Source: an uncultured Verrucomicrobia subdivision 3 bacterium (GTDB lineage Bacteria > Verrucomicrobiota > Verrucomicrobiia > Limisphaerales > UBA11358). Taken from it: a stretch of DNA of 64,000 nucleotides. Under the pieces are notes generated by a model. It saw only the letters and a program-made list of their open reading frames with translations, made no database searches and was not told the origin of the DNA. Where the stretch lies: positions 11,739-75,738 of the forward strand of contig CAITTG010000078.1 in the NCBI GenBank assembly GCA_903895255.1, given 5' to 3'. Position 1 is the first letter of the stretch. Each line of letters opens with the position of its first letter. Of this stretch, positions 6,937 through 26,114 are shown one piece after another. Both the position numbers and the translations under genes were made by a program.

Positions 6937-6937
6937 A

Positions 6938-6971
6938 TGGCGGAGAGAGGGGGATTCGAACCCCCGATACC
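6938..6971 (-). repeat. att-type direct repeat: orphan copy of the tRNA-Ser 3' end (CCA, acceptor 3' strand, T-arm, part of variable arm)
   Basis: Identical 34-mer to 43823-43856. Beyond 6971 the sequence no longer matches the tRNA. It starts 2 nt after the lyase stop codon. Confidence 0.85.
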
Positions 6972-7100
6972 AAAACGCCGATAACGCCCATGTCATATAT
7001 GCGAAAAATAAGGATTTTTAGCGTCTGCGTTATTGAAAATGCTTGACGTTATTCTGAATTTAATTCTGAATGTTTTCAGCGCTTGGAACCAATTTGAATC

Positions 7101-8312
7101 ATGTCGAGCATCTGGAAAGACCCGCGCAGCCCCTATTGGGTTGCCTGCTTCACGGCCTACGTCGGCTTGAGCGCCCAGCAATTGAAGCGCTCCACCGGCA
7201 CCACGGATAAAAAGCTGGCCAGCCGGATCGCAGACGAACTTGAGGAAGCCGCTTGCGGCAAGCGCACCTCGGAGCGGGTCAAGGTCTTCATCAATGAGAT
7301 TACCGACCTCAAAGCCCGGCGCGCCGCGCACCATGCATTTGATTTCGCATTTCGCCATACAACCGGCAGCGGATTGGCCAGCAAGACCACCCGGGGGTTT
7401 CTCACGGCCTGGATGGAGAGGTCCAAAGCCGAGGTTTCACCCTCCACTTGGGCCAAGTATGCTCAAACCGTAAAATTGTTCCTGGAATTCCTGGAGGGCA
7501 AAGCCGATCAGGACATCACCACGATCCGGCAGGAGGACATTTCCCGATTCCGCGATGCCCAAGCCCAGCGCGTCGCCCGTAGCACGGCTAATGTATTCCT
7601 AAAAATCCTGCGGGTCATATTCACTACCGCCGAGGCCGATGGCGTGATCGTGCGGAATGAGGCGCGGCACGTCAAATTGCTTAAGGTGGCCAACGAGCAA
7701 AATGGCCGCCGGGCATTCACCCTGCCGGAATTAAAGGGCATTCTGGAGCACTGCAATGACGAGTGGCGCTCGCTCGTGCTGTTTGGTTTCTACACTGGCC
7801 AACGGCTGGGAGATTTAGCAATGCTGACCTGGCAGAACCTCGACCTGAACCAGAGGGAATTACGCCTTAGCAGCCGCAAAACCGGCCGGACCATTGTGAT
7901 TCCCCTGGCAGCCCCGCTGCTGGAACACATTGAAAAACTCCCGGCAGGGGATAATCCCAAACAGCCAGTTCATGCCAATGCCTTTAAGGTGATGAGCCGG
8001 AATGGCCGGGCGGGAGCACTTTCTAATCAATTCGGCGACATTCTGGCGGCGGCGGGCTTGGTGGTGGCGCGAACCCACAAGGTCGAGGAGGAAGAAAAAC
8101 GCAAAGGCCGGGACGCGCGGCGGGTTTTGAGCGATATAAGCTTCCATTCCCTGAGGCACACCAATGTCAGCTTGCTGAAGAATGCCGGAGTTAGCGACGC
8201 CGTGGCGCAGGACCTGGTAGGACACGAATCCGCCGAAGTAAGCCGTTTGTACACTCATATAGACGATAAATCCAAGCGGGAGGCGGTGAATAAACTTCCA
8301 ACAATCGGTTAA
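7101..8312 (+). CDS. int: tyrosine recombinase / phage-type integrase
   Basis: 403 aa. The C-terminal catalytic region has GQRLGDL (R), HSLRHTNVSLL (H-x-x-R) and VGHESAEVSRLYTH (H...Y). The gene is adjacent to the att repeat. Confidence 0.9.
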   Translation: MSSIWKDPRSPYWVACFTAYVGLSAQQLKRSTGTTDKKLASRIADELEEAACGKRTSERVKVFINEITDLKARRAAHHAFDFAFRHTTGSGLASKTTRGFLTAWMERSKAEVSPSTWAKYAQTVKLFLEFLEGKADQDITTIRQEDISRFRDAQAQRVARSTANVFLKILRVIFTTAEADGVIVRNEARHVKLLKVANEQNGRRAFTLPELKGILEHCNDEWRSLVLFGFYTGQRLGDLAMLTWQNLDLNQRELRLSSRKTGRTIVIPLAAPLLEHIEKLPAGDNPKQPVHANAFKVMSRNGRAGALSNQFGDILAAAGLVVARTHKVEEEEKRKGRDARRVLSDISFHSLRHTNVSLLKNAGVSDAVAQDLVGHESAEVSRLYTHIDDKSKREAVNKLPTIG

Positions 8313-8529: not shown

Positions 8530-8802
8530 CTGCCGGGCCAGCCCGCCGAGCGACCTAAATCGGTTGGGTCGTAAAAAATTTATTGTCAAAAGGCCGAAAA
8601 ATGAACGTCGAGATTCAAAAAATGGCGTTCTTCATTAAAGGCTGCACTCCTCCCCGCTTCTGTCCGGGCTCCGTCGCGGACGCGGATTTTTGCTTAACAT
8701 GCCTTATTTCCAGTAATAAATTTCGGGCGTAATTTCCCATGGACTTTGCCGAGCTTTCCGGCAGCATGCGTTAATCTCAGACCATTCAATGGGATACGTA
8801 CA

Positions 8803-11800
8803 ATGACGCTTGCTGACCTTAAACCCGACAAAATACTGCATGGCCCGATTTTCCCCGAGCCGGTTCAAGTCATTGTCTGTTATCCCATGGGCGATGGCGT
8901 CAAACTCGTGGCCAAGGGGGTAAACACCAACCTCGTATATCAGCCCGTCCTTACGGCCAAAAACCTCGCCACCCTCACCAGCACGCCGGATGTCGAGCCC
9001 TTCGATGGCGATCCTCAACGCTTTCGCCTAGCCGTCGAGGCCATGCGGCTGGCCCTAGCCTTCGAGTACGACCCCTATTTTTCCCTGTCCATCGCCCGCG
9101 TCGACCCCCTCCCGCACCAATTGGAGGCCGTCTACGAATATTTCATGGTGCAGCCCCGCATCCGGTTCCTCCTTGCTGATGACCCCGGCGCGGGCAAAAC
9201 CATCATGGCCGGGCTTCTCCTCAAGGAATTGAAGATTCGCGGTCTCGTCTCCCGCACGCTCATCATCACGCCAGCCAATCTGTCGTTCCAGTGGCAGCGC
9301 GAGATGAAGGATAAATTCCGCGAGAATTTCGAGGTGATCCGCAGCGATGTCCTCCGCGCCAATTACGGCTCCAATCCTTGGCAGGACAAAAACCAGGTCA
9401 TCACCTCCGTTTCCTGGGTCTCGCGCATCGAGGACGCCAAGGAGAGTCTTTTGCGCAGTCATTGGGACCTCATTATCGTGGACGAGGCCCACAAAATGAG
9501 CGCCGCCAGCCGCGACCGAAAGACCCTCGCCTACCAGCTTGGCGAGGCCTTGTCGCAGATGACCGACCATTATCTGCTCATGACCGCCACGCCCCACAAA
9601 GGCGACCCCGACAATTTCTGCCTCTTCCTGGAGTTGCTCGACCGCGATGTCTACGGCGACGTCAAAAGCCTGGAGGAAGCCATGCGCAAGCAGGAGGCCC
9701 CGTTCTACCTGCGCCGGGTGAAAGAGGCCCTCGTTTCCTTCCCTGATCCCGACACCGGCAAGGCCAAACAGCTCTTCACCCGCCGCGTCGTCCGCACCTC
9801 GGACTTTCAGATCAACAGCGACGAACTCGATTTTTACGATGCCCTTACCCGTTTCGTGGAAGACCAGTCCTTCAAGGCCGCCTCCGAGGATTCCCCCCGT
9901 GGCCGCGCCCTCGGCTTCACCATGGCCATGCTCCAGCGCCGGTTTGCCTCCAGCATCTATGCTGTGCGCCGCAGCCTCCAGCGCATGCGCGACAAGCGCG
10001 AACAGATCCTCGCTGACCCCGAAGGCTACCGCAAAGCGCAGATAGATAAACGCCTGCCCGACGATTACGACGACTTACCTGAGGATGAACAGCAGGAAAT
10101 CGTGGCCGAACTCGAAGATTTGGTCGCCTCCTACGACCCTGCCGCCATCCGGGAGGAAATCGTCGACCTCAGCAAACTCATCGTGCTCGCCCAGTCGCTG
10201 GAGAAACGCGAAGTCGAGTCCAAGCTCGTCAAGCTCCGGGAATTGATCACCCAGCACAACCTCTTCAAAGACCCGAAGATGAAGCTCCTCGTCTTCACCG
10301 AGCACAAGGACACCCTCGATTTCCTCTGTGCCGATGGCAAGGACGGCCGCCCGCTCGGCAAACTCCGCGAATGGGGCCTGACCGTCACCCAGATTCACGG
10401 CGGCATGAAAATTGGCGACCGCGACACTCCCGGCACCCGCATCTTTGCCGAGCGCGAATTCCGCGAGGCTGCCCAGGTCCTCGTCGCCACCGAGGCCGCC
10501 GGCGAGGGCATCAACCTCCAATTCTGCTGGCTGATGATCAATTACGACATCCCTTGGAACCCCGTCCGACTGGAACAGCGCATGGGCCGCATCCACCGTT
10601 ACGGGCAGGAAAAAGACTGCCTTATCTTCAATTTCGTCTCCACCAACACCCGCGAGGGCCGCGTCCTCCACAAATTATTCGAGCGCATCCAGGCCATCGA
10701 GGAAGACCTCGACCCCAAGCGCACTGGCAAGGTGTTCAACGTCCTCGGCGAGGTCTTCCCCGCGAACCAGCTCGAAAAGATGATTCGCGACATGTACGCG
10801 AGCAACCAGATGGACGAGGAAATCATCAAGCGCCGCATCATCGAGGAAGTCGACACCAAACGCTTCCAGCAAATCACCAATTCCACGCTGGAAGGCCTCG
10901 CCAAGCGCGAATTGAACCTGTCCGCCATCGTCGGCCGGTCCGCTGAGGCCAAGGAGCGCCGGCTTGTGCCCGAAGTCATCGAAAACTTCTTCACCCAGGC
11001 CGCTCCCCTCATTGGGGTCCATCCGAAGGAAACCCGGGAGAACAGCCACGTTTACCGGCTGGGCCGGGTCCCGCGCGCCCTCTGGCCCGTGGGCGAACGG
11101 CTGGAACCTCGCTTCGGCAAACTGGGGCGTGAATACAAAAACATCGTGTTCGACAAGGAACATCTGAAACGCGATGCCACCCTAGAATGGGTCACCCCCG
11201 GCCATCCACTGTTTGAAACCGTCCGGGAATCCGTCACTGACGAAGTCCGCAATGACCTGCGGCGCGGCGCGGTGTTTTACGATCTCCACCATGGGTTGCC
11301 CTACCGCCTCGACGTCTTCAGCGCTTCCATCAAGGATGGCCGTAATAACCAAATCCACCGGCGATTGTTCGTGGTCCAAGCCGACCTTGCCGGGTTGCTG
11401 ACGATCCGCCAACCCACCATCTTCCTCGACCTGGCCCTTGCCGGTAAAGACGCCCTCGTCCCCGATGGTCAAGGATTGCCCGATCATGCTTCCGTCGAGC
11501 AATTTCTGGTCGCCCAGGCCCTAAACCCCTTTCTGGCCGAGGTCGCCGCCCAGCGGTTGCGGGAAACCAACATCATCACCCGCCACCTGGAAATCAGCCT
11601 CCGGGAACTCATTCACCGCCAGAACCTGCGCATGGCGGAAATCCACGAGCAAGCCATCGGCCCCGATGACCCCTTGCTGGCCGCCAACCTGAAAAAGGTC
11701 GAGGACAAGCTTGATGAATTAAATGCCCGGTTGGAGCGCCGCACCGCCGAGTTGCGCCAGGAGGCCGAATGCATGATTGGGGATGTCCAGCACGTTGGTC

Positions 11801-12291
11801 GGGCCTGGGTCCTGCCCCATCCCGAACGCACCTCCCCGCAAATTGCCCCCATGGTGCGCGATGAGGAGATCGAGCGCATCGCCGTCCAGCAGGTCATCGC
11901 CCACGAAACGGCGCGCGGCTGGCGGGTGGAAAGCGTCGAGGCTGACAATCGCGGTTTCGACCTCATTTCCCGCAAACCGCACCCTGAGGACCCGGGGACT
12001 GCCATCGACGTACGGTTCATTGAGGTAAAGGGCCGGGCGCACACCGGGGAAATTGCCCTGACCGCCAATGAATACCGCACCGCCCAGCGCTTGCGGAAGG
12101 ATTACTGGCTGTATGTCGTTTTTCATTGCGGCACGCCCAATCCCTCGCTCAATATTTTGCCGGACCCGGCGACGCTGGACTGGCAGCCCGTCGTCAAAGT
12201 GGAGCATTACCGTTTGAAACAAGACTCCGTCAAGGCACCCGTGGAATTGAAGGAAGAGGCACCCCCCTTTCGTACCGGAGGTGCGTCGTGA
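8803..12291 (+). CDS. SNF2-family helicase with C-terminal DUF3883-like (nuclease-fold) domain
   Basis: Track ORF starts at TTG 8746; the first ATG at 8803 gives MTLADLKPDKILHG. Motif I LADDPGAGKTIMAG, motif II IIVDEAHKM, motif VI QRMGRIHRYGQ. The C-terminus GFDLISRKP...IEVKGR...ALTANEYRTAQRLRKDYWLYVVF is typical of DUF3883. Confidence 0.85.
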   Translation: MTLADLKPDKILHGPIFPEPVQVIVCYPMGDGVKLVAKGVNTNLVYQPVLTAKNLATLTSTPDVEPFDGDPQRFRLAVEAMRLALAFEYDPYFSLSIARVDPLPHQLEAVYEYFMVQPRIRFLLADDPGAGKTIMAGLLLKELKIRGLVSRTLIITPANLSFQWQREMKDKFRENFEVIRSDVLRANYGSNPWQDKNQVITSVSWVSRIEDAKESLLRSHWDLIIVDEAHKMSAASRDRKTLAYQLGEALSQMTDHYLLMTATPHKGDPDNFCLFLELLDRDVYGDVKSLEEAMRKQEAPFYLRRVKEALVSFPDPDTGKAKQLFTRRVVRTSDFQINSDELDFYDALTRFVEDQSFKAASEDSPRGRALGFTMAMLQRRFASSIYAVRRSLQRMRDKREQILADPEGYRKAQIDKRLPDDYDDLPEDEQQEIVAELEDLVASYDPAAIREEIVDLSKLIVLAQSLEKREVESKLVKLRELITQHNLFKDPKMKLLVFTEHKDTLDFLCADGKDGRPLGKLREWGLTVTQIHGGMKIGDRDTPGTRIFAEREFREAAQVLVATEAAGEGINLQFCWLMINYDIPWNPVRLEQRMGRIHRYGQEKDCLIFNFVSTNTREGRVLHKLFERIQAIEEDLDPKRTGKVFNVLGEVFPANQLEKMIRDMYASNQMDEEIIKRRIIEEVDTKRFQQITNSTLEGLAKRELNLSAIVGRSAEAKERRLVPEVIENFFTQAAPLIGVHPKETRENSHVYRLGRVPRALWPVGERLEPRFGKLGREYKNIVFDKEHLKRDATLEWVTPGHPLFETVRESVTDEVRNDLRRGAVFYDLHHGLPYRLDVFSASIKDGRNNQIHRRLFVVQADLAGLLTIRQPTIFLDLALAGKDALVPDGQGLPDHASVEQFLVAQALNPFLAEVAAQRLRETNIITRHLEISLRELIHRQNLRMAEIHEQAIGPDDPLLAANLKKVEDKLDELNARLERRTAELRQEAECMIGDVQHVGRAWVLPHPERTSPQIAPMVRDEEIERIAVQQVIAHETARGWRVESVEADNRGFDLISRKPHPEDPGTAIDVRFIEVKGRAHTGEIALTANEYRTAQRLRKDYWLYVVFHCGTPNPSLNILPDPATLDWQPVVKVEHYRLKQDSVKAPVELKEEAPPFRTGGAS

Positions 12292-12479
12292 GCAAACTGC
12301 GCGTCTTCGTCAGTTCGGTCCAAAGGGACTTAATTAAGTCATCTTCCGATTATCTTCCGCTGATTTTCGGCTATCTTCCGATTTTTCACCGCCGCGCTCA
12401 ACGGTGTCGTATTCAACGGACGAGTCGCCAACCAATCAGCGACCAATTTTCCGGCATCCTAAACGTGGCCACCCTATGA
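12288..12479 (+). pseudogene. truncated remnant of a DUF4062-type gene, start coupled (GTGA) to the helicase stop
   Basis: GTG 12288 overlaps the helicase TGA (12289-12291). The first 15 codons VSKLRVFVSSVQRDL match the characteristic DUF4062 N-terminus (RVFISS..dL). Similarity ends at the AT-only palindrome ttaattaa (about 12330-12337); the rest is low-complexity with short direct repeats. Confidence 0.45.
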
Positions 12480-12625
12480 AGAATCTGCTACAAATCTACT
12501 ACCGGCACTGTCCAAACCCGGCTGGAAATTTCCGCAACTATCCGCAACCAAGCGGGCCGGAATCCGCAACCTCGTCTGCTCGATCGTACTTCGTCAGCTT
12601 TAAGTCGAATTGGCGGCGGGAAAGC

Positions 12626-12790
12626 GGCACACTCAATCCGTCGCTCAATATTCTGCCCGACCCGGCTACACTGGACTGGCAACCCATCGTCAAGGTGGAG
12701 CATTACCGTTTGCGTCAGGATTCAGGCAAATCCCCGGTTGAGTTGCGGGAAGAGGGCGTGCCCTATCGAACCGGAGAACGACCATTATGA
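12626..12790 (+). pseudogene. diverged second copy of the last ~55 codons of the helicase gene
   Basis: 12626-12790 aligns by eye with roughly 80 percent identity to 12130-12291. Encoded NPSLNILPDPATLDWQPIVKVEHYRLRQDSGKSPVELREEGVPYRTG versus NPSLNILPDPATLDWQPVVKVEHYRLKQDSVKAPVELKEEAPPFRTG. No upstream helicase body. Confidence 0.75.
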
Positions 12791-12967
12791 AAAACCAAAT
12801 GAAAAAGCGGCCGACCACAGGTCAGCCGCTTGTTTGGACAAGGAAGAGAGTGTTTGTTTTGGCTGGGCTCGAAAGCCAGCGCCCTTTAAAAGGGCCAACC
12901 ACAACCTTAACTCTCTATAAATCGCTGCATAATTAATATCGTAGTTTTCATGCAAATGCAATAAAAA

Positions 12968-14779
12968 ATGCATATTTTAACAGCAAATGACGAGTTCAAT
13001 TCGTTTCCCGCCGGCGAAAAGGTTTTTCTCGAATCGTGGTTCAATTTAACGCATCCCCAGTCCCTCGATAGTTTTCGGTTCCGCTGCCATAATGGCCGGA
13101 CCATTCTGGAAGAATTGGCCAGGGAGATGGGGTATCCATTTGCGGACAGGGACGATCTAAATACTATCGCGTCTGAAGCAAAAGATATTGCCAATCAGGA
13201 CACAATTCTTCAATCAATTCTGGCTTCATCCTGGGGCCTGCTTTATCACAGCCTGACCGAAATTACGGCAAAAAATGCCAAGGATGAGGCGGCAAGGGAG
13301 CGGGAAGTGGCTCAGATTAAAACCATTTTGCTCGATACGCTGCCCGGCTTGTCCGCGCCTTACCTGGATCTGACCTTCAGCACACTGAAAAAGGCCATAA
13401 ACGACTGCAATGAAAAGGAAATTCACCGGCTTGCGAACAGTCTGGCAACCGATCTGGCAGCTCGGGGTTGGGTGGCGGCCAGCCTGCACTCCTGGGTGAA
13501 ATCCAAATTTTTGGGTGCTGAATGGCAAACCATGACTTTCGAACAACGCTACGCGCTGTTTGAGGAACGGCTTAAGCGAAACCCGGAAAAATACGATGTA
13601 ATTCTGTCGCTCTCCGGCAGCCGTCAGGTTTTAAGCCTCGGCCAGTACGGTGATTTCGTTTTTTCCGCCGAACCACCAGCGATTGCCGTTCACGAAGAGG
13701 GCGACGCGCCCGCCATCACTAAATTCCTGACCAAAAACCAGCAGCGAATTTTTGCGGCCACTGTTGTGGATGCCGTCGATTCAAACTCGGCCATTCATGC
13801 TGCCCAGGAGAAATTTGCCAAATGCCAGGACCGCTTGCGTTTCAATTTTTGCACTGAACCCATGGCAAGCTGGCGGGCGGTCCTGATATCGCGCCAGGCT
13901 GACAAAAAACCCAAAATTGTCCATGCGATGTGGCGTATACCAAATCCACAACATCACCTTCCGCTAAAGCATTTTCTGGTGGCCAATGAGCGCACGGATC
14001 AGTTGTTTCAGTCCGGCCAGATCACCGAAGAGTCCCAGCGCCGCCTTGAGTCTGCGGTCCGCCATTACCGCCTTGGCTTGGATGCCAATGCCTATCGCGA
14101 CATGTTGTTGAATTGGTGGATGGGGCTTGAGACCTTGACCAATAGTGGAGATGGGAAAGGCATTGGCCAAAAAGTGATTAAAAACGTGGTTCCGGTGTTA
14201 ACTCACCGCTATTTTACGAATCATTTGCGAATCCTGTATGGCACTGTTTTGCAGGCCTGCGGCGAGTGGCCCGCCGAAACCGCCGGCCTCTTAAAAAGCC
14301 AGGTTAAGCCTGGGGCGCCTTGGCAGCGCATGATCGTTATCCTCCAGGACGCTAATGCCTCCGCTGAGGTTGGCGCTGCGCTGGCTCCGCATCCGTGGCT
14401 GCAATTGATTTGGGCAAAGTACCAGGAGTTGGTGAATGATCCTGCCAAACTGGTCGATTATTTGGAGGCCCACGATGTTCGTGTTCATTGGCATATCCTG
14501 CGGATTTACCGCATCCGGTGTTGCCTTGTCCATGGAACACCGGTTGTCACCCCCCTCCAAATGCCCACCGCCAATGTGGAATATTACTTGCGCGAAGCAA
14601 TTTATGTTGTCCTGGATGCTTTTCAAAAAGCCAGTCAGATTAGGTCAATGGACCATGTTTTTGAGCGAACCAGAAACTGCGCTCAGCGTCGCAAAGCCAT
14701 TTTGCGTGATAAAGCGGCGTCCGCTGCATCCATTTTTTCAGCCTTGGAGACGGACATTGTCTTTCAAATAGTTAAATAA
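12968..14779 (+). CDS. 603-aa hypothetical protein with C-terminal HEPN-like R-x4-H motif
   Basis: Clean ATG ORF in AT-richer DNA with an AT-rich upstream region. The C-terminal region reads NWWMGLETLTN ... HWHILRIYRIRCCLVHGTPV (R-CCLV-H-G), the pattern seen in Abi/ApeA-like HEPN domains. The N-terminal ~400 aa are unrecognised. Confidence 0.55.
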   Translation: MHILTANDEFNSFPAGEKVFLESWFNLTHPQSLDSFRFRCHNGRTILEELAREMGYPFADRDDLNTIASEAKDIANQDTILQSILASSWGLLYHSLTEITAKNAKDEAAREREVAQIKTILLDTLPGLSAPYLDLTFSTLKKAINDCNEKEIHRLANSLATDLAARGWVAASLHSWVKSKFLGAEWQTMTFEQRYALFEERLKRNPEKYDVILSLSGSRQVLSLGQYGDFVFSAEPPAIAVHEEGDAPAITKFLTKNQQRIFAATVVDAVDSNSAIHAAQEKFAKCQDRLRFNFCTEPMASWRAVLISRQADKKPKIVHAMWRIPNPQHHLPLKHFLVANERTDQLFQSGQITEESQRRLESAVRHYRLGLDANAYRDMLLNWWMGLETLTNSGDGKGIGQKVIKNVVPVLTHRYFTNHLRILYGTVLQACGEWPAETAGLLKSQVKPGAPWQRMIVILQDANASAEVGAALAPHPWLQLIWAKYQELVNDPAKLVDYLEAHDVRVHWHILRIYRIRCCLVHGTPVVTPLQMPTANVEYYLREAIYVVLDAFQKASQIRSMDHVFERTRNCAQRRKAILRDKAASAASIFSALETDIVFQIVK

Positions 14780-14815
14780 TTGCCAGAGAACAGCCAATTT
14801 TGATTCGCGAGCGCA

Positions 14816-16009
14816 ATGATAAATATAATGGTAAAACAAAAAAACATTCTCTGGCTCAGTTTGGCAGCAAACGTGGTTGATGCCCGCTACAGCGATTTGA
14901 TCAATTATGCTGCCGAGGTAGGGATACATATTAAGCCCATTCAGGAAAACGCCCCAATCTCAACCGCAGAATTTTCTGAATTGCTTGATCAAGCCGATGC
15001 ATACATCGTAACCTTCGAAGACATTGTTCCGCTTGAACCGTTTAAGACGCCTCTCATATCGGCGATCAAGAAAGGCAAACGACTTTTGTTGCTGGGAACT
15101 AGTCATACGTTCAATGGATTTCTGATAGAATTTGACCTCGCTATTTCTGGGGAACGCATGTGTGGGCCGGGGGCAATCTTCGGTGACGAACGAACGATTA
15201 TTCTAAATCACGCAGACCAGACCAATGCAACTGCTCAGGCATTGTTTGCCGGAAATGATTTAACCATTTCAAGTCCGTCTCGGGTTTGGTACGGAAATTC
15301 TGCAATACCGCTTTTCAAATTGCCCGAAAAATCCCGGTTGCTGAACAAGAATGATAAATTCGAATTACCTGGTCCCCGCGAACTTTGCTGTGGCGCAATA
15401 TGGTCAGGTGCTGACACCAAGGCCGCCGTCATGGTGATCGCTGGCTCTGCTTTGAATGATCCGTTTCAAGGCGTCACCGGTAAAATTTTTCCGGGCATTC
15501 GGGCAAATGCTCGGTTTGCGCATAGGCTTCTCGACTGGTTGCTGGGGGACCTCGTTAAAGAAACGAGCTCTGGCCGTGCGATGGAGTTCCTTCATTCCAT
15601 TGAGGTGGGCATATATGACGTCATCCTTGAAATCCTCAAGAATAAATTCAACGAGAAGCCCGATGACTGGTGGTATCGAGGAATTCCGGAGATGTTGAGA
15701 AAAAAGGCCGCCGAACTTTCGGAAGAAACCAGGGGGTCCATTCCCAAAGAACAAGGCTTTTACTTGCTTTCATACAAAGTCATTATCGAAAGCAACTGGA
15801 AGCTTTTCGCAACCTATTTTGATCCTGATAACGCCGGGAAAAATGAAGCGATGCAATGGATGCTGGACCTTAACGAGCTGCGGAACAAATTGAGTCATCC
15901 ACTCCGCCTCCGGCAAAGCCCGCTTACCGAGGACGACTATGCTTTCATCAAACAACGAAAGCACTTTATTGACGCGCTCTGCCGCGAAATTCTGCCGCCA
16001 AAAAATTGA
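14816..16009 (+). CDS. 397-aa protein: unrecognised N-terminal alpha/beta domain + C-terminal Swt1-like HEPN domain
   Basis: C-terminus WWYRGIPEMLRKKAAELSEE...YKVIIESNWKLFATYFDP...WMLDLNELRNKLSHPLRL (R-N-x3-H). Its stop 16007-16009 overlaps the methylase start. Confidence 0.6.
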   Translation: MINIMVKQKNILWLSLAANVVDARYSDLINYAAEVGIHIKPIQENAPISTAEFSELLDQADAYIVTFEDIVPLEPFKTPLISAIKKGKRLLLLGTSHTFNGFLIEFDLAISGERMCGPGAIFGDERTIILNHADQTNATAQALFAGNDLTISSPSRVWYGNSAIPLFKLPEKSRLLNKNDKFELPGPRELCCGAIWSGADTKAAVMVIAGSALNDPFQGVTGKIFPGIRANARFAHRLLDWLLGDLVKETSSGRAMEFLHSIEVGIYDVILEILKNKFNEKPDDWWYRGIPEMLRKKAAELSEETRGSIPKEQGFYLLSYKVIIESNWKLFATYFDPDNAGKNEAMQWMLDLNELRNKLSHPLRLRQSPLTEDDYAFIKQRKHFIDALCREILPPKN

Positions 16010-16011
16010 TC

Positions 16012-19000
16012 ATGACCCAATTTCCCAAACGCCTCATCGAAGTTGACCTGCCCATCAAGCGCATCTCCGCGCATGCGCGGCGGGAGAAATCCATCCGGCA
16101 TGGGCATATTTCCACGCTCCACATCTGGTGGGCGCGGCGGCCGCTGGCGGCCTGCCGGGCGGTGATTTGCGCCGCCCTGTGGCCGGACCCGGCGGATGCC
16201 CAGTGCCCGCCGGCTTTCGTAAAGGTCGCCCGGGCCGAGATGCAGAAATGGACCACCCACGAACGGCAAAGCCTCTTGAGCGCGGAAAGCCGGGTGCATT
16301 TTGAAAACCTGCGGAAAAGTCCGGAAAATTCCGTGGACCCGGTCCACCTGCGGACGCTCTTGCTGGATTTTATTGCGGATTTTGCCAATTGGGATAGTTC
16401 CACCCTGCCGGAATACCTGGAAACCAGCCGGGCGCTGACCCAGGCCGCGCACGAGGCGCTGGGCGGTGCGCCCGGCACCCGTCCGCTGGTCGTGGACCCG
16501 TTTGCCGGCGGTGGCTCCATTCCGCTGGAGGCGCTCCGGGTGGGGGCCGACGCCTTCGCGTCCGATCTCAATCCCGTGCCGGTGCTGCTCAACAAGGTCG
16601 TCTTGGAATACATCCCGAAATACGGCCAGCGCCTGGCTGACGAAGTCCGCAAGTGGGGCGCATGGATCAAACAGGAGGCCGAAAACGAATTGGCGGAGTT
16701 TTATCCCAAGGACGCCGACGGCGCGACGCCTATCGCCTACCTCTGGGCGCGAACGATTCAGTGCGAAGGCCCCGGCTGTGGTGCGGAAGTGCCACTCATT
16801 CGTTCATTGTGGCTTGCAAGGAAGGCCAAAAGTTCAATTGCAATTAAATTGGTTCCAAACAGAGATGCAAAGCGTGTTGATTTTAAAATAATTGTTAAAA
16901 AGCGCGACGGGTGGGTAAATCAGGATGATCCATCGGAAAAAATACCTGATCCGAATTTTGACGGCACAGTAAAACGAGGGTCGGGGACTTGCCCCTGTTG
17001 TGGTTATACAACACCTGTTGCTCGGGTTCGCGAACAACTCAGAACTCGACATGGAGGAGGTAATGACGCTCGAATGTTTTGTGTTGTATCAACGAGAACA
17101 GCCGAACAGGGCAGATTTTTTCGTCTGCCAAATGAATTGGATGAGAAAGTTGTGCGGAGATCAAGTGAGGAATTGGCCGCGAGAAATAAAGCCAATAATG
17201 GTTTGCTGTCCCTGGTGCCGGATGAAAGGCTAGATATTCGAGGCATTCGTCATACCTGGGCCATGTTATATGGCTTGGAAGCATGGGGTGATTATTTTAC
17301 TTCCCGGCAATCTTTGGCATTAATAACGCTTCACAGGCTTACCAAAGAAACCGAGAAAAAGCTGGATCGGGTTGATGGTGTGCTGGCAAAAGCTGTGCAT
17401 ACATGCTTGGCACTTGCCGTGGATACTTGTGCTGATCACAATTCCAGTTTGTGTTCCTGGCGTGTATACACGCTTGATACAAGCCATGTTTTTGGTAGAC
17501 AGGCCCTTTCTATGGCATGGGATTTTTCCGAAACATGTTCTGCCGGCGATAGCACTGGGTCTTTCATCGGAGCCATTGATAAAATGTCTCGGGTCATTGA
17601 GGGGTTGTCCTGCATTTCTGGCAGCAATGCCGACGTTACGACTGCTTCTGCCACTGAACACCCATTGCCGTCAGGTTCCGCTCATGCATTTGTTACCGAC
17701 CCGCCATATTACGATGCGGTTCCCTATGCATTTCTATCCGACTTTTTTTATGTTTGGCTAAAGCGCAGCCTTGGTGAAGTTCACGATTCATTGTTTAAGG
17801 AAGATCTGGTTCCAAAGGACCCAGAAATTGTTGTGGACCGTACTCACGAGTTGAGCAACACAACACACGACATTGCATTTTACGAACGTGAATTGACCAA
17901 GGCGTTTAATGAGGGCCGACGCATATTACGCTCCGATGGTATTGGGACGATAGTTTTTGCAAGCAAAACAACGTCAAGTTGGGAGGCAATTTTAAAAGCA
18001 GTTGTCGATGCCGGATGGATTATCACAGGTTCGTGGCCAATTGACACTGAGATGGCAACCAAAGTTGCTGCCATCGGGCAGGCACGCTTAATGTCATCAG
18101 TTCATCTGGTATGCCGGCCGAGGGCCAATCCCGATGGTTCAATCCGAAAGGACGAAATCGGCGATTGGCGTGACGTTTTGCAGGCATTGCCCATCCGCAT
18201 TCACGAATGGATGCCCCGTCTGGCCGAAGAAGGCGTTGTCGGTGCGGATGCCATTTTCGCCTGTCTCGGACCGGCCCTGGAAATCTTCTCCCGCTACTCG
18301 CGGGTGGAAAAAGCCAGTGGCGAAACCGTGGCGCTTAAGGAATATCTGGAACAGGTCTGGGCCGCCGTCGCCAAGGAGGCCCTGGCCTTGGTCTTCAAAG
18401 ACGCGGACACCACCGCTTTCGAGGCGGACGCCCGCCTCACTGCCATGTGGCTCTGGACCCTGAAAGCTGATGCCGCCGAGGATGCTACCTTCGGGGCTGA
18501 AGAAACGGATGACGATGACGATGAAGCCAAGGGCAAAGGAGGCAAAACCAAGGGTGGCTTCACCCTGGAATACGACGCCGCCCGCAAAATCGCCCAAGGG
18601 CTGGGAGCCCATCTGGAAGATTTGACCTCCCTGGTGGAAATCTCCGGCGAAACCGCCCGGTTGCTCCCCGTGGCCGAGCGCGCCCAGCACCTGTTCGGCA
18701 AAGACGATGCCACCCTCGCCGGCCAGGGAGCCAAGCGCAAGAAACGCGACCCCCAAATGGACATGTTCACCGTCCTCGGCGACGCCGAAGCCGCCGAATC
18801 CACCTTCGGCGAGACCAAAGTCTCCCGCGTCGGCGAGACCGCTTTGGACCGGGTGCATCAAAGCATGATCCTCTTCGCCGCCGGCCGCAGCGAAGCCCTC
18901 AAACGCTTCCTCGTCGACGACGCCATCGGCCAGGACCAGCGCTTCTGGAGCCTTGCGCAAGCACTCTCAGCCCTTTACCCCTCCAGCACCGAGGAAAAGC

Positions 19001-19047
19001 GCTGGGTCGATGGCGTCTTGGCACGCAAGAAAGGATTGGGATTTTGA
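16012..19047 (+). CDS. DUF1156-type DNA methyltransferase (N6-adenine/N4-cytosine class, DPPY) with Zn-ribbon
   Basis: N-terminus [47 protein letters not shown] is the DUF1156 signature. AdoMet motif [15 protein letters not shown], Zn-ribbon [11 protein letters not shown], motif IV [13 protein letters not shown]. The track start 16006 is TTG; ATG at 16012. Confidence 0.85.
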   Translation: [1011 protein letters not shown]

Positions 19048-19116
19048 GATGCTTGGTAGCCAAACGCATGGAACCGATTCTTAAATTCAATTGGAAAGAT
19101 TAATTTATTTATCGTT

Positions 19117-19515
19117 ATGTCAGATACAATTCCGGATCAAATTATAAAGGCGCTTGAGTGGTCAAAGGATTGGAGCATCTGGCTCGTTGGCTTGCAGACA
19201 GCTATTGTTGGTGGGATTGCAATTGCCTTGGGAAAGCCTCAGGAATCGGTGATTAGCTTTAGGTCAATCTTACCCCTGAAAATAGCATTATATGCTTTTT
19301 TGGCTTCCATTGCTACAGCCACATGGGTGCTGGCGGGTATACCGACTATTTTGTGTCGAATCACGGCAAGTGACAAAGATGTCTTTTTAATGCCGCTGTT
19401 TTCTTGGTTGCCAATGCCCCTATGGATCGCCACAACCTGCGAACACTGGTTTTTCATTATAGGTTTTATTTTTTTAATATTCTCAGTGAGGTGCAAAATA
19501 AAATGTCGCAACTAA
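19117..19515 (+). CDS. small integral membrane protein (3-4 predicted TM helices)
   Basis: 132 aa. Hydrophobic stretches WSIWLVGLQTAIVGGIAIALG, LKIALYAFLASIATATWVLAGIPTIL, LPMPLWIATTCEHWFFIIGFIFLIFS. AT-rich DNA. Confidence 0.5.
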   Translation: MSDTIPDQIIKALEWSKDWSIWLVGLQTAIVGGIAIALGKPQESVISFRSILPLKIALYAFLASIATATWVLAGIPTILCRITASDKDVFLMPLFSWLPMPLWIATTCEHWFFIIGFIFLIFSVRCKIKCRN

Positions 19516-19593
19516 TTAATTTGGATAAAGGCCTGTCGCGTCATTTTGAGACAATGCAATAATAACAATCATGAACTGCAAAATCCGAATCGC

Positions 19594-20436
19594 ATGAACA
19601 ATCAATCTGCTCCATTAGTTCCCGACGCGATGGTTCGTCCTGATGGTATTGCGATAAAAAAGCTCCGTGAACTACATCAAATTAATCCCAAACAAATAGA
19701 TTTTGCGAAGGCCTGCGGCATCAGCCGAAGAATCTTTCAAGACATTGAGAGTGGAAAACCGACAACCTTCAAAACTTTGCAGAAAATTGCGACATATCTG
19801 CAAATTGACGCGGCATCATTATTAACTCCGGCAGATGAATTTGATCTCGAGACCGACGAGGACGGGTATGAGGAAATGAGCAAAGAGATTCCAAAAGCTT
19901 TATTTGATAAAATTGGAAAGGCCCAAAAAAAAGTAATGATCTTGCAAACATGGCTTGCGGATTTCCCTTATTTTGACAAGTACCTTCGCCAAGCCGTTAA
20001 AAATGGGGCTAGCCTCGAAATTTTAATTCTCGATCACCAATCTCCAATGTTCAAGACGCGGGTGCGTGAATATTACATGGAAGATGAGCCTAAAACGAAA
20101 GACAAAAAATCTCTTAAAGCATTTCAAGCAAAAAACTTGAAATACGTCCAAAACGAGCTATACGCTGGGGGTATCGAAACCTTGAAACGTTTGTATTCCC
20201 TGAAACAGCGCAAAGGTCAAATAGTAATAAAAAAATATCGGGGGTCCGCTGTCATTTCGCTTCATATGGCTGATGACGAAATGTACGTAGGTACATTTTG
20301 GCGTGGAAAATCTACTATTGAAGGACCTCAAATTAAGGTTAATCGAAGCGGTTATTTTGGCAGGAGAGTTCTCAAGCATTTTAATTTGATTTGGGAAGAC
20401 CCAACAACAATAGAGTTAAGCCCGCCACAGGAGTAG
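19594..20436 (+). CDS. XRE-type HTH protein with C-terminal PLD-like / DUF5919-like domain
   Basis: Track start 19546 is TTG; first ATG at 19594. HTH: IAIKKLRELHQINPKQIDFAKACGISRRIFQDIESGKPTTFKTLQKIATYL. The C-terminal KKVMILQTWL...GASLEILILDHQSP...VIKKYRGSAVISLHMADDEMYVGTFW pattern recalls DUF5919 (from memory only). Confidence 0.5.
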   Translation: MNNQSAPLVPDAMVRPDGIAIKKLRELHQINPKQIDFAKACGISRRIFQDIESGKPTTFKTLQKIATYLQIDAASLLTPADEFDLETDEDGYEEMSKEIPKALFDKIGKAQKKVMILQTWLADFPYFDKYLRQAVKNGASLEILILDHQSPMFKTRVREYYMEDEPKTKDKKSLKAFQAKNLKYVQNELYAGGIETLKRLYSLKQRKGQIVIKKYRGSAVISLHMADDEMYVGTFWRGKSTIEGPQIKVNRSGYFGRRVLKHFNLIWEDPTTIELSPPQE

Positions 20437-20565
20437 GGCTGCAAGGAGCAGGAACTCCACTCATGCAGTTTTATCGGGCCAAACCTCTCGGTTGCAAAAC
20501 AATTGGCTCGCGAAAAATCGCAAACCAATTCTTACTTTGCGCGCCACACCCGGCTTTACGGGTTT

Positions 20566-20805
20566 TCATTTTATGAACCGATAAACTAAGACGCCAACCG
20601 TGTAAACGGGCTCCCTAAGCAAAACACCCGCCAGCAAGGCCAACGTTAATATAAGTGCGATTTTAATGGCGGCTGATCGCAAAATTCGTTTTACAATCAG
20701 AATTGCGTTTTGCTTCGGTGGGTTCTGCTGCCAATCCGTTACGTAGGCGTTGTCATTCTGCGCCTTTAGAGATATGCAATTTTTAACAGTATACCGCAGT
20801 TTCAT
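20566..20805 (-). CDS. possible small membrane protein (uncertain)
   Basis: Track ORF 20566-20922 starts at GTG; an internal ATG at 20805 gives MKLRYTVKN... with one C-terminal TM (AAIKIALILTLALLAGVLL). No recognisable family. Confidence 0.25.
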   Translation of the reverse strand: MKLRYTVKNCISLKAQNDNAYVTDWQQNPPKQNAILIVKRILRSAAIKIALILTLALLAGVLLREPVYTVGVLVYRFIK

Positions 20806-21147
20806 TTTGAATCCTTTCTCGGGTTCTTTTTTATTTAAACCAACGAGGGATTTTTGCTTGAAATTGAGCCATATTAAAAGCCAATGAATATGCTCATTTG
20901 CGCAGTTGGGGCGCAGTGCCACGCGGGGATGCGCAACGCGCGCGCGGTATTTCTAACTCATGAGATACACTTTTGGAGTGGTTTATTGGCTGTTACCAAA
21001 GTAAATTATCCGAAAGAAAATTGATGAGTATTGAAGCCGATTATAATCCATACAAATCCCGCGTACCAATCGTTCAATACAACTGGGCGTCAGACATCAT
21101 ATCGCGCCTAGCTCATAGCGAACCAAGAAACTAGCTACGGCCTAATC

Positions 21148-21732
21148 TTGAGCTCAGACCTCCCCACTGCCTTCCGACAAGCGTTGCTCGAAACGCTGCG
21201 CGACGAGCGCCATGCCGGACCATTACGCACGGCCGCGATAGCCGGGGTGCTGGGATCGTGGACCACAGCCTTGACCAGCGCTTCCATCGAAACGTGCGGA
21301 CAACTTGGCTGGCGCGCGTCCGCCAAGGGCCATCAGACGGACCTTCTGCCCGTCAGCCGGGGCGAATATCTGGCCCTGGACGTCATGGCTTTCGCCCCCG
21401 GCGAGAACCGCTGGCTGTTCCCATTGGCCATCATGGAACTGGAAAACCAGCGCCGTGAGGATTACATCGCCTATTCACTTTGGAAATTGTTAAGTGTCCG
21501 CGCCGATTTGCGGGTGCTGTTCTGCTACCGCCAGGAAGCATCGGAGGCTGGCCCCTTGCGCAAGCACCTCCAGGACGAAGTCATCGCCGCCCTGGGTGTC
21601 GGCCACCGGGTCACCCTCCACGGCAACACCCTCCTCGTCATTGGCCGCCGGGGCGAAGCCGAGACCTTCCCCCATGGCTTTTTCGCCTGGTGGCAATTGA
21701 ATGCCAACACCGGTCACTTTGAGCAATTCTAG
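21148..21732 (+). CDS. 194-aa hypothetical protein, possible PD-(D/E)xK nuclease fold
   Basis: TTG start (no in-frame ATG near; frame opens at 21112). Motif spacing LALDVMAF ... PLAIMELEN ... YSLWKLL resembles D...E-x-E/K nuclease cores. GC content returns to host-like exactly at this gene. Confidence 0.35.
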   Translation: MSSDLPTAFRQALLETLRDERHAGPLRTAAIAGVLGSWTTALTSASIETCGQLGWRASAKGHQTDLLPVSRGEYLALDVMAFAPGENRWLFPLAIMELENQRREDYIAYSLWKLLSVRADLRVLFCYRQEASEAGPLRKHLQDEVIAALGVGHRVTLHGNTLLVIGRRGEAETFPHGFFAWWQLNANTGHFEQF

Positions 21733-21777
21733 CCTTTTGTATTTGAAATTAAGGCCTTAGTCTTTGATTTCAGCATT

Positions 21778-24579
21778 ATGAAATTGAAGCCTTGGTACGA
21801 TGTGGTGAAGCCGCGCGAGGACTTGCGCGAGGGCAAATCCCAGGATTCATCGGAATTCGCGGTCCACCTAGACCGGGTACGGGATGGCACCGCCCGGGCG
21901 GATTACGGTCGCCCGGAGCAATTCTTCGCCAAAACCTTTCTAGCGGCCAACCTGCTGGACCTCGCCGCCCAAACCATGCGCCGGCTCTCCGGTGAAACCA
22001 GCCACACCTCGCCGGTCTTCAACCTGGCAACCAACTTCGGCGGCGGCAAAACCCACGCGCTAACCCTACTGTACCATCTCGCCCAGAATGGCCCCGCCTC
22101 CCAAGCATGGCTGGGAGTGTCGCAAATTCGGGACAAAGCGGCTATATCCCAGATTCCCAAGGCCCGCGTGGCGGTGTTCGTCGGCACGGAATTCGACTCC
22201 CTGTCCGGTCGCGGTGGCGATGGTAATGGCCCACGCCGGCTGACCCCCTGGGGTGAAATTGCCTGGCAATTGGGTGGCGAAGCGGCCTTCAACCTGGTTC
22301 GGGAGCATGATGAGAAGAAAATCGCTCCCGGTGGTGACGTTATCCGCAAACTGATTCCCGGCGATGAGCCCTGCCTGATCCTGGTGGACGAGTTGCTAAA
22401 CTACGCCAGCCGGTTCCGCACGCTGGGGCTGAATAACCAGCTTTATGATTTCCTATTGAATCTTTCCGGGGCCATGAACCCGCGTTCCGTCCTAGTGGTG
22501 TCGGTGCCCGCCTCGGAAATGGAAATGACGCCCGATGATGTGGCGGATTACCAACGCCTGACCAAAATGCTCGACCGCGTCGGCAAACCCATGACGATGA
22601 CGGCGGGGGCCGAGACCAGCGAGATCATCCGCCGCCGGCTATTCGAGTGGGATACGCGCGCGGTCAATGCCGATGGCCGGGTTTTGCTGCCCAGAGAGGC
22701 GGTGGATGCCTGCGGAGAATTTGCGCATTGGGTGCATGGCCACGCCCAACAACTTTCCAGTTCCATACCCCCGGACCACGCCCGGACGCATTTTGAGGCC
22801 TGTTATCCCTTCCATCCGAGTGTGTTATCGGTGTTCGAGCGGAAGTGGCAGACGGTGCCCAAATTCCAGCAAACGCGCGGGGTGCTGCGGATGCTGGCGC
22901 TCTGGATTCAAAATGCCTACACCCAGGCCTATCGCAAAGCCCACCCGGACCCACTTTTGACGCTGGGCACGGCCCCTTTCGGGGATGCCATTTTCCGCTC
23001 AGCGGTTTTCGAACAACTGGGCAACCGCGCCTTGGAAACGGCAGTCATGGTGGACATTGCCGGTCGCAAGGAGGCGCATGCGGTGGCGCTGGACCACGAG
23101 GCCAACGAAACCATCAGCAAGGAACGCCTGCACCAAAAGGTGGCGACGGCAGTCTTTTTTGAATCGAACGGTGGCACCACGAAGTCGGAAGCGACCTTGC
23201 CGGAAATCCGGCTGGCCGTGGGGCATCCAGATTTGGACCTCGGCAACGTGGAGACCGCCCTGGACGCACTCACGGACCGTTGCTACTACCTGACGGTGGA
23301 GCGAAAAAATTACAAGTTCAGCCTCCGGGAGAACCTGAATAAGCGGTTCTCGGACAAGCGAGCCAATATCGAGCTGCCCGCCATCGACGAGGTGGTGCGG
23401 CAGGAAATCCAAAAACGTTTTATTGCGAAGGAGGGGGTGGAGCGGGCGTGGTTCCCCGCCAAGAGCATCCAAATAGCCGACCGCCCGGTGCTGACCTTTG
23501 TCATTGGCGACTTGCATCAAACGATGGAGGAACGCAAGGATACCCTGGCGCTAATGGACCAAATGACCCGGGAAAATGGGAGTTCCAACCGTACGTTTAA
23601 GAGTGCCTTGATCTGGATGATGGCCGACACGCCGGGGGCGATGCGGGAATGCGCCCGCAAGCAACTGGCATGGCTGGCCATCGAGGACGAGGCGATTGAC
23701 TTGAAGCTGGACGAGTCCCAGCGCCGGCAACTCGCTGAGAACATTGAGCGCGCGCGCCGCGATTTGCGGGATTCCGTCTGGCGAGCATACAAATACGTCT
23801 TCATGCTGGGCAAGGACAACACCCTCCGGGAAATTGACCTGGGCATGGTGGGGGGCGGTTCAGGAATCGATTCCCCGATTACCAACGTCCTCAACCGGTT
23901 GGCGGCTGACGGGGAATTGGAGAAGGGTATCAGCGTCCGGCTATTGGTTAAAAACTGGCCATCGGCATTCACCGAGTGGCCGGTTAAATCCGCGCGTGAC
24001 GCGCTTTATGCTTCGCCGCAATACCCACGAATTATCCGGGGTACGGAAGCCATTCAGGATGCGGTGTCCAAAGCGGTTGCCCAAGGCGAGTTGGCCTATG
24101 TCGGCAAAGCGCTGGACGGCAAATATCTTCCCTTCAAATACAACGAGACCTTGTTCCCCGGCGATGTGGAGGTGGTGGAGGAGATGTTTCTAATCACCCG
24201 GGAAACAGCCACCGCCTATCTGCAAAAGCAAGCTGCCCCGATCTCGGTACCAAGCGCCACGCCGGCACCGGTGACGCTACCGACACCCCCAACCTCCACC
24301 ACACCGCCCCCGGCGACCGTGCAGCCCACACTGCCAATTGGAACTGGTGGCGCGTCATCGGGCGCATCTAGCCTATCATGGACCGGGGAGATTCCGCCGC
24401 AAAAGTGGATGAATTTCTATACCAAGGTGCTCTCCAAGTTCGCATCTGAGCGCAGCTTGAAGCTCACCCTGAAAGTGGAAGTCGCCCCGGAAAACGGCGT
24501 TTCCCAACAAAAGCGCGAGGAAACGAAATCCGCTCTGAAGGAACTGGGGCTGAGTGATGACTTGGGGCCGACATTATGA
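21778..24579 (+). CDS. DUF499-type AAA+/P-loop ATPase
   Basis: N-terminus MKLKPWYDVVKPREDLREGKSQDSSEFAVHLDRVRDGTARADYGRPEQFFAKTFL...NFGGGKTHALTLLYHL is the DUF499 (COG1483-like) signature. Walker B CLILVDELL. Confidence 0.8.
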   Translation: MKLKPWYDVVKPREDLREGKSQDSSEFAVHLDRVRDGTARADYGRPEQFFAKTFLAANLLDLAAQTMRRLSGETSHTSPVFNLATNFGGGKTHALTLLYHLAQNGPASQAWLGVSQIRDKAAISQIPKARVAVFVGTEFDSLSGRGGDGNGPRRLTPWGEIAWQLGGEAAFNLVREHDEKKIAPGGDVIRKLIPGDEPCLILVDELLNYASRFRTLGLNNQLYDFLLNLSGAMNPRSVLVVSVPASEMEMTPDDVADYQRLTKMLDRVGKPMTMTAGAETSEIIRRRLFEWDTRAVNADGRVLLPREAVDACGEFAHWVHGHAQQLSSSIPPDHARTHFEACYPFHPSVLSVFERKWQTVPKFQQTRGVLRMLALWIQNAYTQAYRKAHPDPLLTLGTAPFGDAIFRSAVFEQLGNRALETAVMVDIAGRKEAHAVALDHEANETISKERLHQKVATAVFFESNGGTTKSEATLPEIRLAVGHPDLDLGNVETALDALTDRCYYLTVERKNYKFSLRENLNKRFSDKRANIELPAIDEVVRQEIQKRFIAKEGVERAWFPAKSIQIADRPVLTFVIGDLHQTMEERKDTLALMDQMTRENGSSNRTFKSALIWMMADTPGAMRECARKQLAWLAIEDEAIDLKLDESQRRQLAENIERARRDLRDSVWRAYKYVFMLGKDNTLREIDLGMVGGGSGIDSPITNVLNRLAADGELEKGISVRLLVKNWPSAFTEWPVKSARDALYASPQYPRIIRGTEAIQDAVSKAVAQGELAYVGKALDGKYLPFKYNETLFPGDVEVVEEMFLITRETATAYLQKQAAPISVPSATPAPVTLPTPPTSTTPPPATVQPTLPIGTGGASSGASSLSWTGEIPPQKWMNFYTKVLSKFASERSLKLTLKVEVAPENGVSQQKREETKSALKELGLSDDLGPTL

Positions 24580-24920: not shown

Positions 24921-24955
24921 TAGCATTTGCAACTTGAACCAAAGTTGAAATTCGA

Positions 24956-26059: not shown

Positions 26060-26114
26060 TATAGAGTTTAGTAGCTTGTAGTAATCCAAAATTTTCTGCA
26101 TATTATTATGGGCG

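Follow-up and report, generated by a model that had tools for sequence, protein, structure and literature searches.

Do two adjacent genes that carry the same short nuclease motif form one defence system? The question is raised by a stretch of 64,000 nucleotides (hereafter the window) from contig CAITTG010000078.1 of an uncultured Verrucomicrobia subdivision 3 bacterium, in which an earlier note had described a two-gene HEPN-motif cassette and a candidate for an undescribed RNase-type defence or abortive-infection module. The two open reading frames (ORFs), termed P1 and P2, occupy the cargo slot between hmaA and hmaB of an Hma (helicase-methylase-ATPase) system on an integrase-bearing island, and they are two independent genes. 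P1 is best assigned to the ApeA proteins, and P2 joins a predicted Swt1-like HEPN domain to an N-terminal domain of another kind. The features on which the argument rests are the following:

12968–14779, + strand: P1, 603 amino acids (aa), a divergent ApeA judged by homology to solved ApeA proteins
14516–14533, + strand: predicted HEPN catalytic motif of P1, R517-C-C-L-V-H522, aligned with R502/H507 of Ec2ApeA
14816–16009, + strand: P2, 397 aa from the ATG at 14816, of an unnamed family
14816–15550, + strand: N-domain of P2, approximately residues 1–245, alpha/beta and GATase1/ThuA-like by Foldseek, without the catalytic Cys
15551–16009, + strand: C-domain of P2, residues 246–397 and stop, predicted Swt1-like HEPN from family-level profile matches to HEPN_Swt1
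15881–15898, + strand: HEPN motif of P2, R356-N-K-L-S-H361, with conserved R and H
8746–12291, + strand: hmaA, SNF2 helicase with a C-terminal NOV_C/DUF3883 nuclease-like domain (PADLOC HmaA, E 3.4e-191)
16012–19047, + strand: hmaB, DUF1156 N6-adenine methyltransferase (PADLOC HmaB, E 3.2e-119; Pfam DUF1156)
21778–24579, + strand: hmaC, DUF499 AAA+ ATPase in the canonical HEPN-less form (PADLOC HmaC, E 5.3e-111)

Both ORFs were recovered on the + strand (603 aa from 12968, 397 aa from 14816) together with the peptides quoted from them earlier, and Pfam and PADLOC agree with the naming of the flanks as an SNF2/NOV_C(DUF3883) helicase and a DUF1156 methylase. In Pfam, hmaA matches SNF2-rel_dom, Helicase_C and NOV_C, and public gene calls place its start at 8803. 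With the DUF499 ATPase, the helicase and the methylase stand in the same-strand order hmaA-hmaB-hmaC, which is the core of the PADLOC Hma system (Payne 2021/2024), alias the Type-1 BREX-related (BR) DUF499 system, and the defence-locus setting thus stands. The window HmaC shows the DUF499 core from the outset, with Walker A near residue 88, and a HEPN domain looked for in it gave no match. A segment of it, EIRLAVGHP (residues 477–485), was flagged by hhalign against the P2 HEPN profile and was treated as chance, because Pfam shows no HEPN there in the window HmaC or in other HmaC proteins. P1 and P2 are AT-richer than their neighbours, as had been remarked, with guanine-cytosine (GC) contents of 51.4% and 47.0% against 60.0% in hmaA, 55.8% in hmaB and 59.4% in hmaC. 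P1 is an intact ORF from the ATG at 12968, P2 follows on the same + strand after a gap of 36 nucleotides (nt), and the TGA stop of P2 (16007–16009) overlaps a TTG start of hmaB at 16006 by 4 nt, as described before, or precedes an ATG at 16012 by 2 nt, the latter being used in public gene calls. At least two more independent metagenome assemblies (L015 and L016) contain the locus in identical form, and the arrangement is therefore not an assembly artefact.

The pair could not be placed in any named defence system when it was noticed; the system around it proves to be a named one, and HEPN cargo within Hma is an already published framework. Genes embedded between the core genes are held by 62.7% of Hma systems, about 23% of the embedded genes are known defences, and seven of nine tested candidates gave phage protection, a HEPN protein included (Payne et al., bioRxiv 10.1101/2024.01.29.577857). 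A 2026 paper in Nucleic Acids Research renames Hma as Type-1 BREX-related systems, reports HEPN, PIN and Schlafen RNases as suicidal back-up effectors within BREX/BR loci, and counts 1370 of 2446 Type-1 BR taxa in which the DUF499 ATPase carries an N-terminal HEPN fusion (PMC12839542). The window agrees with described Hma loci in its same-strand HmaA, HmaB and HmaC and in cargo that has the same orientation, is AT-richer and varies by locus, HEPN RNases being a described cargo class, whereas two tandem HEPN cargo genes in its hmaA-hmaB slot, and the second cargo zone that hmaB and hmaC enclose, set it apart.

Other loci carrying relatives of either gene answer the question of the pair. The five window proteins were compared by tblastn with the fetched loci, none of which carried both P1 and P2, and no co-occurrence was found outside the window locus and its identical copies. 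The partner is absent from 7/7 other P2 loci and from 3/3 other P1 loci, which are arranged as follows:

L001: unassigned gene, P2 (the closest relative), hmaB, DarT/Macro, hmaC
L002: hmaA, SF1 helicase, 252-aa gene, P2, NmeDI-like gene, GmrSD, hmaB
L003–L006: hmaA, Abi_C gene, P2, hmaB, hmaC
L007: hmaA 3' stub and intact P2 (9585–10933) in housekeeping surroundings
L008: hmaA 3' stub, P2 with an in-frame stop inside RN*LSH, hmaB 5' stub (9750–11238) in housekeeping surroundings
L009: type I restriction-modification (RM) S subunit, DruA, ParE, then P2
L010/L011: hmaA, P1, hmaB
L012: hmaA, P1, GmrSD, hmaB
L013/L014: internally deleted hmaA, P1, 173-aa gene, guanylate-cyclase-like gene, hmaB 5' stub

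The genes also vary with different neighbours, as identities run parallel across loci for P1 and hmaA (74/84 and 50/64%) and for P2 and hmaB (70/68, 54/56 and 43/54%), and hhalign found the P2 HEPN profile unrelated to the P1 family. P1 and P2 are two independent genes, not one cassette. The proposal of a two-gene module fails at this point: homologues do keep company with defence genes, whereas the expected co-occurrence of the two was not found. Two observations concern L001 itself. The truncated gene 5' of its P2 was checked as a possible ApeA fragment and ruled out, and its DarT/Macro genes (5890–7620) constitute a DarTG-like toxin-antitoxin defence pair between hmaB and hmaC.

How the two genes came to be adjacent can be read in part from the DNA upstream of P1, where two features lie:

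12624–12776, + strand: diverged second copy of the hmaA 3' end (stub, within the ORF 12476–12790), a 153-nt direct repeat of 12128–12280 at 79% identity
12805–12831, no strand assigned: strong hairpin that separates the hmaA stub from P1 (12-bp stem, 8 G-C pairs), from the promoter/terminator scan

The stub lies about 500 bp past the real hmaA stop and appears as a 104-aa gene in public assemblies; its peptide is 73% identical to the C-terminus of HmaA from L010, and positions 12637–12967 are collinear with the L010 DNA that leads from the 3' end of hmaA up to the P1 homologue. The repeat and the collinearity therefore indicate that P1 brought a fragment of a foreign hmaA with it. The adjacency of P1 and P2 is thus a mosaic, and the stub resembles a recombination scar of the gain of an ApeA-like gene. 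At the other end of the slot, the first 150 nt of hmaB (16012–16161, DUF1156 domain) are the most conserved, with 80% mean pairwise identity against 60% overall among six loci, and form a plausible homology arm for cargo exchange; no unusual nucleotide conservation was seen at the hmaA 3' end. L007 and L008 are "ghost" Hma slots, and the preprint on Hma embedding (10.1101/2024.01.29.577857) does not take up cargo-flanking hmaA-3'/hmaB-5' stubs such as those of the window, L007, L008 and L013. A further decayed slot spans 6986–11465 of L013 (also L014), where hmaA residues 20–103 are fused to residues 999–1175; it adjoins a separate DNA_methylase/HATPase/SNF2 cluster. In the window, a 20-nt direct repeat (ATCTTCCGATTATCTTCCGC and variants) occurs three times directly past the hmaA stop (12341–12392), its copies overlapping or adjoining, and could be a protein-binding or recombination site.

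The hairpin resembles a terminator when read on the minus strand, and on the plus strand its T-tail is weak; an AT-rich stretch and then P1 follow it. It is possibly a terminator, and the promoter/terminator scan as a whole was not above shuffle expectation. Because of the hairpin, the AT-rich upstream region, the 36-nt gap and the abutting P2/hmaB junction, P1 and P2 would probably be co-transcribed with hmaB from a promoter 5' of P1, in keeping with the earlier proposal of co-transcription with the methylase gene.

Among known proteins, P1 stands closest to ApeA, which reportedly goes back to Gao et al. in 2020. ApeA is a single-protein, ligand-activated abortive-infection tRNA anticodon nuclease, in which rings of HEPN dimers cut tRNA anticodon loops once a ligand fills a pocket; the Ec2ApeA ligand is 5'-phosphorylated deoxydinucleotides, the R502A variant of Ec2ApeA loses defence, and homologues vary in the pocket, the ligand of Ec1ApeA being unknown (bioRxiv 10.64898/2026.01.26.701840). 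The comparison covered the solved ApeA structures Ec1–Ec4 (9hxb, 9hxm, 9hxj and 9hxn, with 9hxb for Ec2ApeA and 9hxm for Ec4ApeA). In a phmmer search of PDB sequences, the single P1 sequence matched Ec2ApeA at E 1.7e-14 over residues 145–547, and a family profile built from an alignment of 23 relatives matched Ec4ApeA at E 8.2e-45, residues 11–578 against 10–568, as well as Ec2ApeA (2e-27), Ec3ApeA (9e-21) and Ec1ApeA (4e-12). The R-x4-H motifs first noticed are present in both proteins (RCCLVH at P1 517–522, RNKLSH at P2 356–361), where composition predicts 1.35 in P1 with 2 seen and 0.33 in P2 with 1 seen; such counts alone are not beyond chance, and their significance therefore rests on homology rather than on the motif. 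R517 and H522 of P1 align with the catalytic R502 and H507 of Ec2ApeA and are invariant in the 23 relatives, and the Ec2ApeA pocket residues H487 and R490 are retained as H502 and R505. Because of the full-length profile match and the aligned catalytic R and H, P1 is best assigned as a full-length but divergent ApeA and not as an undescribed family.

P1 resembles ApeA further in its length of about 600 aa, its homology across the N-terminal, Mid and split HEPN_ApeA domains, its nature as a single gene and its place within an RM-like operon, a setting already noted for ApeA in 2013 (PMC3710099). It differs in being approximately 20–28% identical to the characterised members, in having Cys instead of Asn after the catalytic R, and in several changed Ec2ApeA ligand-contact positions, so that the activating ligand is probably another one. 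No conserved partner was found among the 3' neighbours of its relatives, and P1 lies directly 3' of hmaA in all four loci seen of its clade. More widely, ApeA-like proteins related to P1 are present on 121 plasmids, and such a gene adjoins a methyltransferase-helicase pair in Pelobacter.

P2 matches Pfam HEPN_Swt1 (PF18731) at E 0.0044–0.043, and PADLOC gives PDC-M34B at 1e-5 (residues 250–366) and Csm6 at 0.004; matches in NCBIfam, Pfam and PADLOC are all sub-threshold and confined to the C-domain. The family speaks more clearly than the single protein. HEPN_Swt1 is the sole Pfam family matched by 30 isolated domain relatives (19/30, best E 4.5e-9), which agrees with the Swt1-like motif recognised earlier, and it is matched by 22/42 full-length relatives, each other family being matched by one member only. 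All 30 sequences of the C-domain alignment share E263, R356 and H361, and all 42 of the full-length alignment share E263, with conservation of at least 90% at R356, H361 and P362, giving P2 the Swt1-like HEPN signature of R-x4-6-H with an acidic residue in helix 1. The C-domain model is all-helical with a predicted local distance difference test score (pLDDT) of 94.4, and searches of PDB sequences with P2, the P2-family profile and the C-domain profile returned nothing meaningful. From the family profiles and the conserved E...R-x4-H, the C-domain is predicted to be a Swt1-like HEPN domain. With other proteins of this type (PF18731; Ava_2192-type HEPN-DUF499; PDC-M34B) it shares the acidic residue in helix 1, R-N-x3-H and an occurrence in RM-like loci, whereas PDC-M34B (about 190 aa) and the DUF499 fusions are without the GATase1-like N-domain of about 245 aa. 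In the two-gene PDC-M34 cassette of PADLOC, only the P2 C-domain resembles M34B, and P1 matches no model, so there is no M34A partner.

For the N-domain, the GATase1/ThuA-like fold suspected from the sequence finds weak agreement in Foldseek, whose best matches are OST48 (6s7t_G, 3.6e-5), ADC synthase (8hx8, 4.7e-4) and a ThuA-like protein (4e5v, 6.6e-4), followed by gamma-glutamyl hydrolase and CTP synthase; one P2 relative matches DUF4350 at E 0.0077. In the 42-sequence alignment no conserved Cys or Ser stands at the nucleophile elbow past strand 4 (the GKRLLLLGTSH segment), and the nearly invariant residues are G87, D180 and N231. If the fold is right, the N-domain may be a non-catalytic GATase1/ThuA-like fold, because the Cys-His-Glu triad of amidotransferases is not present, and it is probably a sensor or assembly module. 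The combination of a GATase1-like domain with a Swt1-like HEPN domain appears unnamed, which leaves the idea of an undescribed module standing for the architecture of P2 and withdraws it for P1, an ApeA homologue.

P2 is extremely rare, with 8 close relatives among 5.8 billion proteins. None occurred in one-genome-per-species contigs or in viral contigs, metagenome contigs gave only the known contig, and plasmids yielded no close relative and only C-domain matches to DGQHR/DndB-like proteins. An exhaustive profile search returned 892 proteins at E ≤0.001; among the best 150 of these, several dozen are full-length relatives of about 380–430 aa, and many others have the C-terminal ~140 residues only, joined to DndB/DGQHR, STAND, AAA or HRDC modules. 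C-domains of the P2 type are combined with DndB-like, STAND and AAA modules in hundreds of other proteins. Scanning for P2 loci with a subgroup alignment brought up two, both degraded or partial, and a homologue search with the broad P2 alignment added nothing. In a Gemmatales metagenome-assembled genome (L017, 4736–10526), a distant ORF with the P2-family N-domain has an SNF2 helicase on one side and an MmeI_N-type methyltransferase-like gene on the other, a 5-hmdU DNA kinase gene lies nearby, and the P2 family therefore also occurs in helicase-methylase systems other than Hma.

Given the observed homologies, conserved motifs, independent assortment and embedding, the reading that we hold to be probable, with some reserve, takes P1 and P2 as two independent single-gene HEPN effectors that serve as back-up suicide layers in the cargo slot of Hma. 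By homology with ApeA, HEPN dimers of P1 would assemble into a ring and stay latent until a small ligand, made as infection proceeds, occupies the pocket where the N-terminal and HEPN domains meet, whereupon activated P1 would cut tRNA anticodon loops and abort infection. P2 would likewise be a latent RNase that shuts down translation once triggered, and both would form a suicidal second line behind the DNA-targeting Hma. In this they would work like PrrC and RloC, in the sense of a latent HEPN RNase gene inside a restriction-modification-type operon that provides a suicidal second line; the likeness is one of working only. PrrC and RloC have an ABC-ATPase N-domain, to which the N-domains of P1 and P2 are unrelated, and PrrC is physically masked by EcoprrI.

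Several results weigh against this reading of two autonomous effectors. In the phmmer alignment, whose N-terminal part has low confidence, Ec2ApeA R148, R152, Y401 and Y469 correspond to H153, N157, H419 and K484 of P1, so that several pocket residues are replaced and the activating ligand may therefore differ. P1 has no match to PADLOC ApeA at E up to 1, to any Pfam family at E up to 10 or to NCBIfam, and neither P1 nor P2 has a full-length match to any named model of PADLOC v2.0.0. The Pfam library should contain an ApeA-type HEPN model. The misses in PADLOC and Pfam reflect divergence and are still compatible with membership in ApeA, one P1 relative scoring E 0.046 on PADLOC ApeA; P1 represents a new ApeA clade that is invisible to curated hidden Markov models (HMMs). 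For P2, the HEPN_Swt1 score of 14.5–17.7 bits lies below the Pfam gathering threshold of 27.5, and Foldseek of the C-domain model against the PDB gave nothing below E 1, the best HEPN match being Csm6' at rank 2 with E 1.2. The HEPN-type domains claimed for both proteins are thus strongly borne out in P1 by its homology to ApeA and at profile level in the P2 family, where the call rests on profiles and motif and not on structure, because Foldseek gave no significant solved match. The N-domain matches have template modelling (TM) scores of 0.33–0.53, and the whole-protein pLDDT of 72.5 includes low-confidence segments inside that domain. Finally, almost all close relatives of P2 lie within or next to Hma, and translational coupling to hmaB is frequent among them, which would also fit a functional tie to Hma in place of autonomy.

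Such a tie is the substance of another account, in which P2 is not autonomous and acts in trans as a back-up effector of Hma, a detached counterpart of the Swt1-like HEPN fused to DUF499. On the whole we consider this unlikely, and we regard with the same doubt the notion that HmaB or HmaC would restrain or signal to P2, as EcoprrI masks PrrC. The window HmaC is without the N-terminal HEPN that the 1370 of 2446 Type-1 BR taxa have (PMC12839542), HEPN-fused HmaC homologues such as that of L021 are annotated as Swt1 family, and hhalign sets helix 1 and R-N-x3-H of P2 in register with the HmaC-fused HEPN, although this similarity is not significant (probability 0.4%, E 0.15). Three of the seven other P2 loci are in intact Hma, and Hma stubs border two more. 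In the window, L001, L003 and the L008 stub, the stop of P2 touches or overlaps the start of hmaB, and the identity of P2 tracks that of HmaB as given above; yet L007 retains an intact P2 relative without hmaB and hmaC, the relative in L009 stands beside type I RM, DruA and ParE genes, two other genes separate P2 from hmaB in L002, and another system, of SNF2 and MmeI type, harbours a distant member of the family. Canonical HmaC also occurs without P2 in the Hma loci L010 and L012, and the best 150 of the 892 profile matches are all ≤778 aa, with no DUF499-HEPN fusion of about 1100 aa among them. A fuller version, tentative in the same degree, would have a P2 dedicated to Hma and controlled by contact of its GATase1-like domain with HmaB or HmaC, with the slot reshuffled by recombination in the hmaA-3'/hmaB-5' arms and stubs left behind.

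The remaining accounts concern the two genes together. That P1 and P2 depend on each other as a single two-gene HEPN system, for instance a heteromeric RNase or a sensor with its effector, is suggested by their adjacency on one strand 36 nt apart, their GC below that of the flanks and the HEPN motif in each, and is very improbable nonetheless: ApeA is in none of the seven P2 loci and P2 in none of the three P1 loci, ApeA works as a single protein, the HEPN domains of the two are unrelated at profile level, the hmaA stub shows that P1 came with its own left flank, and divergence of P1 tracks hmaA while that of P2 tracks hmaB. It is improbable, to a lesser degree, that one of the genes, or both, has no active role in defence, P2 being an RNA-binding or regulatory HEPN protein, an addiction toxin that stabilises the island, or decaying cargo. 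The stop codon within R-x4-H of the L008 relative would fit this account, as would the rarity of the P2 family and its absence from the species-representative genomes and viral contigs scanned. Against this, the ORFs are intact, E, R and H are kept across P2 relatives that are 20–70% identical, defence genes (Abi_C, GmrSD, DarTG, DruA and RM) are consistently found next to them, and no small antitoxin-like gene is conserved beside them.

The surroundings of the slot contain two further features:

7101–8312, + strand: tyrosine integrase at the left edge of the Hma-carrying island (Pfam Phage_integrase, E 2.8e-20)
19048–21777, + strand: second AT-rich cargo zone in the hmaB-hmaC interval, GC 46.3%

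The second zone encodes a 132-aa membrane-like protein, a 296-aa HTH_3 protein with an unassigned C-terminal part and a 194-aa protein, whose homologues are absent from the other Hma loci fetched; because they are embedded in Hma and unshared with those loci, these ORFs are further defence candidates. The Hma locus appears to be carried by an integrative island. On its 3' side, 24576–28656 holds two unassigned ORFs (114 and 367 aa), a gene for a CHC2 zinc-finger primase-like protein (26480–27466) and one for an AAA_25 ATPase (27424–28656). Beside the island, a 2321-aa ORF on the - strand (30619–37584) with SpvB, TcdB_toxin_midN, FG-GAP and RHS-repeat domains is a predicted Tc/RHS-type polymorphic toxin-like protein.

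These findings do not overturn current understanding. They indicate that a whole ApeA clade, found here only directly 3' of hmaA, escapes the HMMs of current defence finders, and that ApeA is therefore under-counted. The altered pocket of P1 suggests a different activating ligand and bears on which small molecules ApeA proteins sense. The hmaA and hmaB stubs around the cargo offer a concrete, testable picture of cargo exchange. P2 adds an unnamed sensor-effector architecture to the candidate abortive RNases, and it provides a clean test case of whether cargo embedded in Hma is autonomous or wired to its host system.

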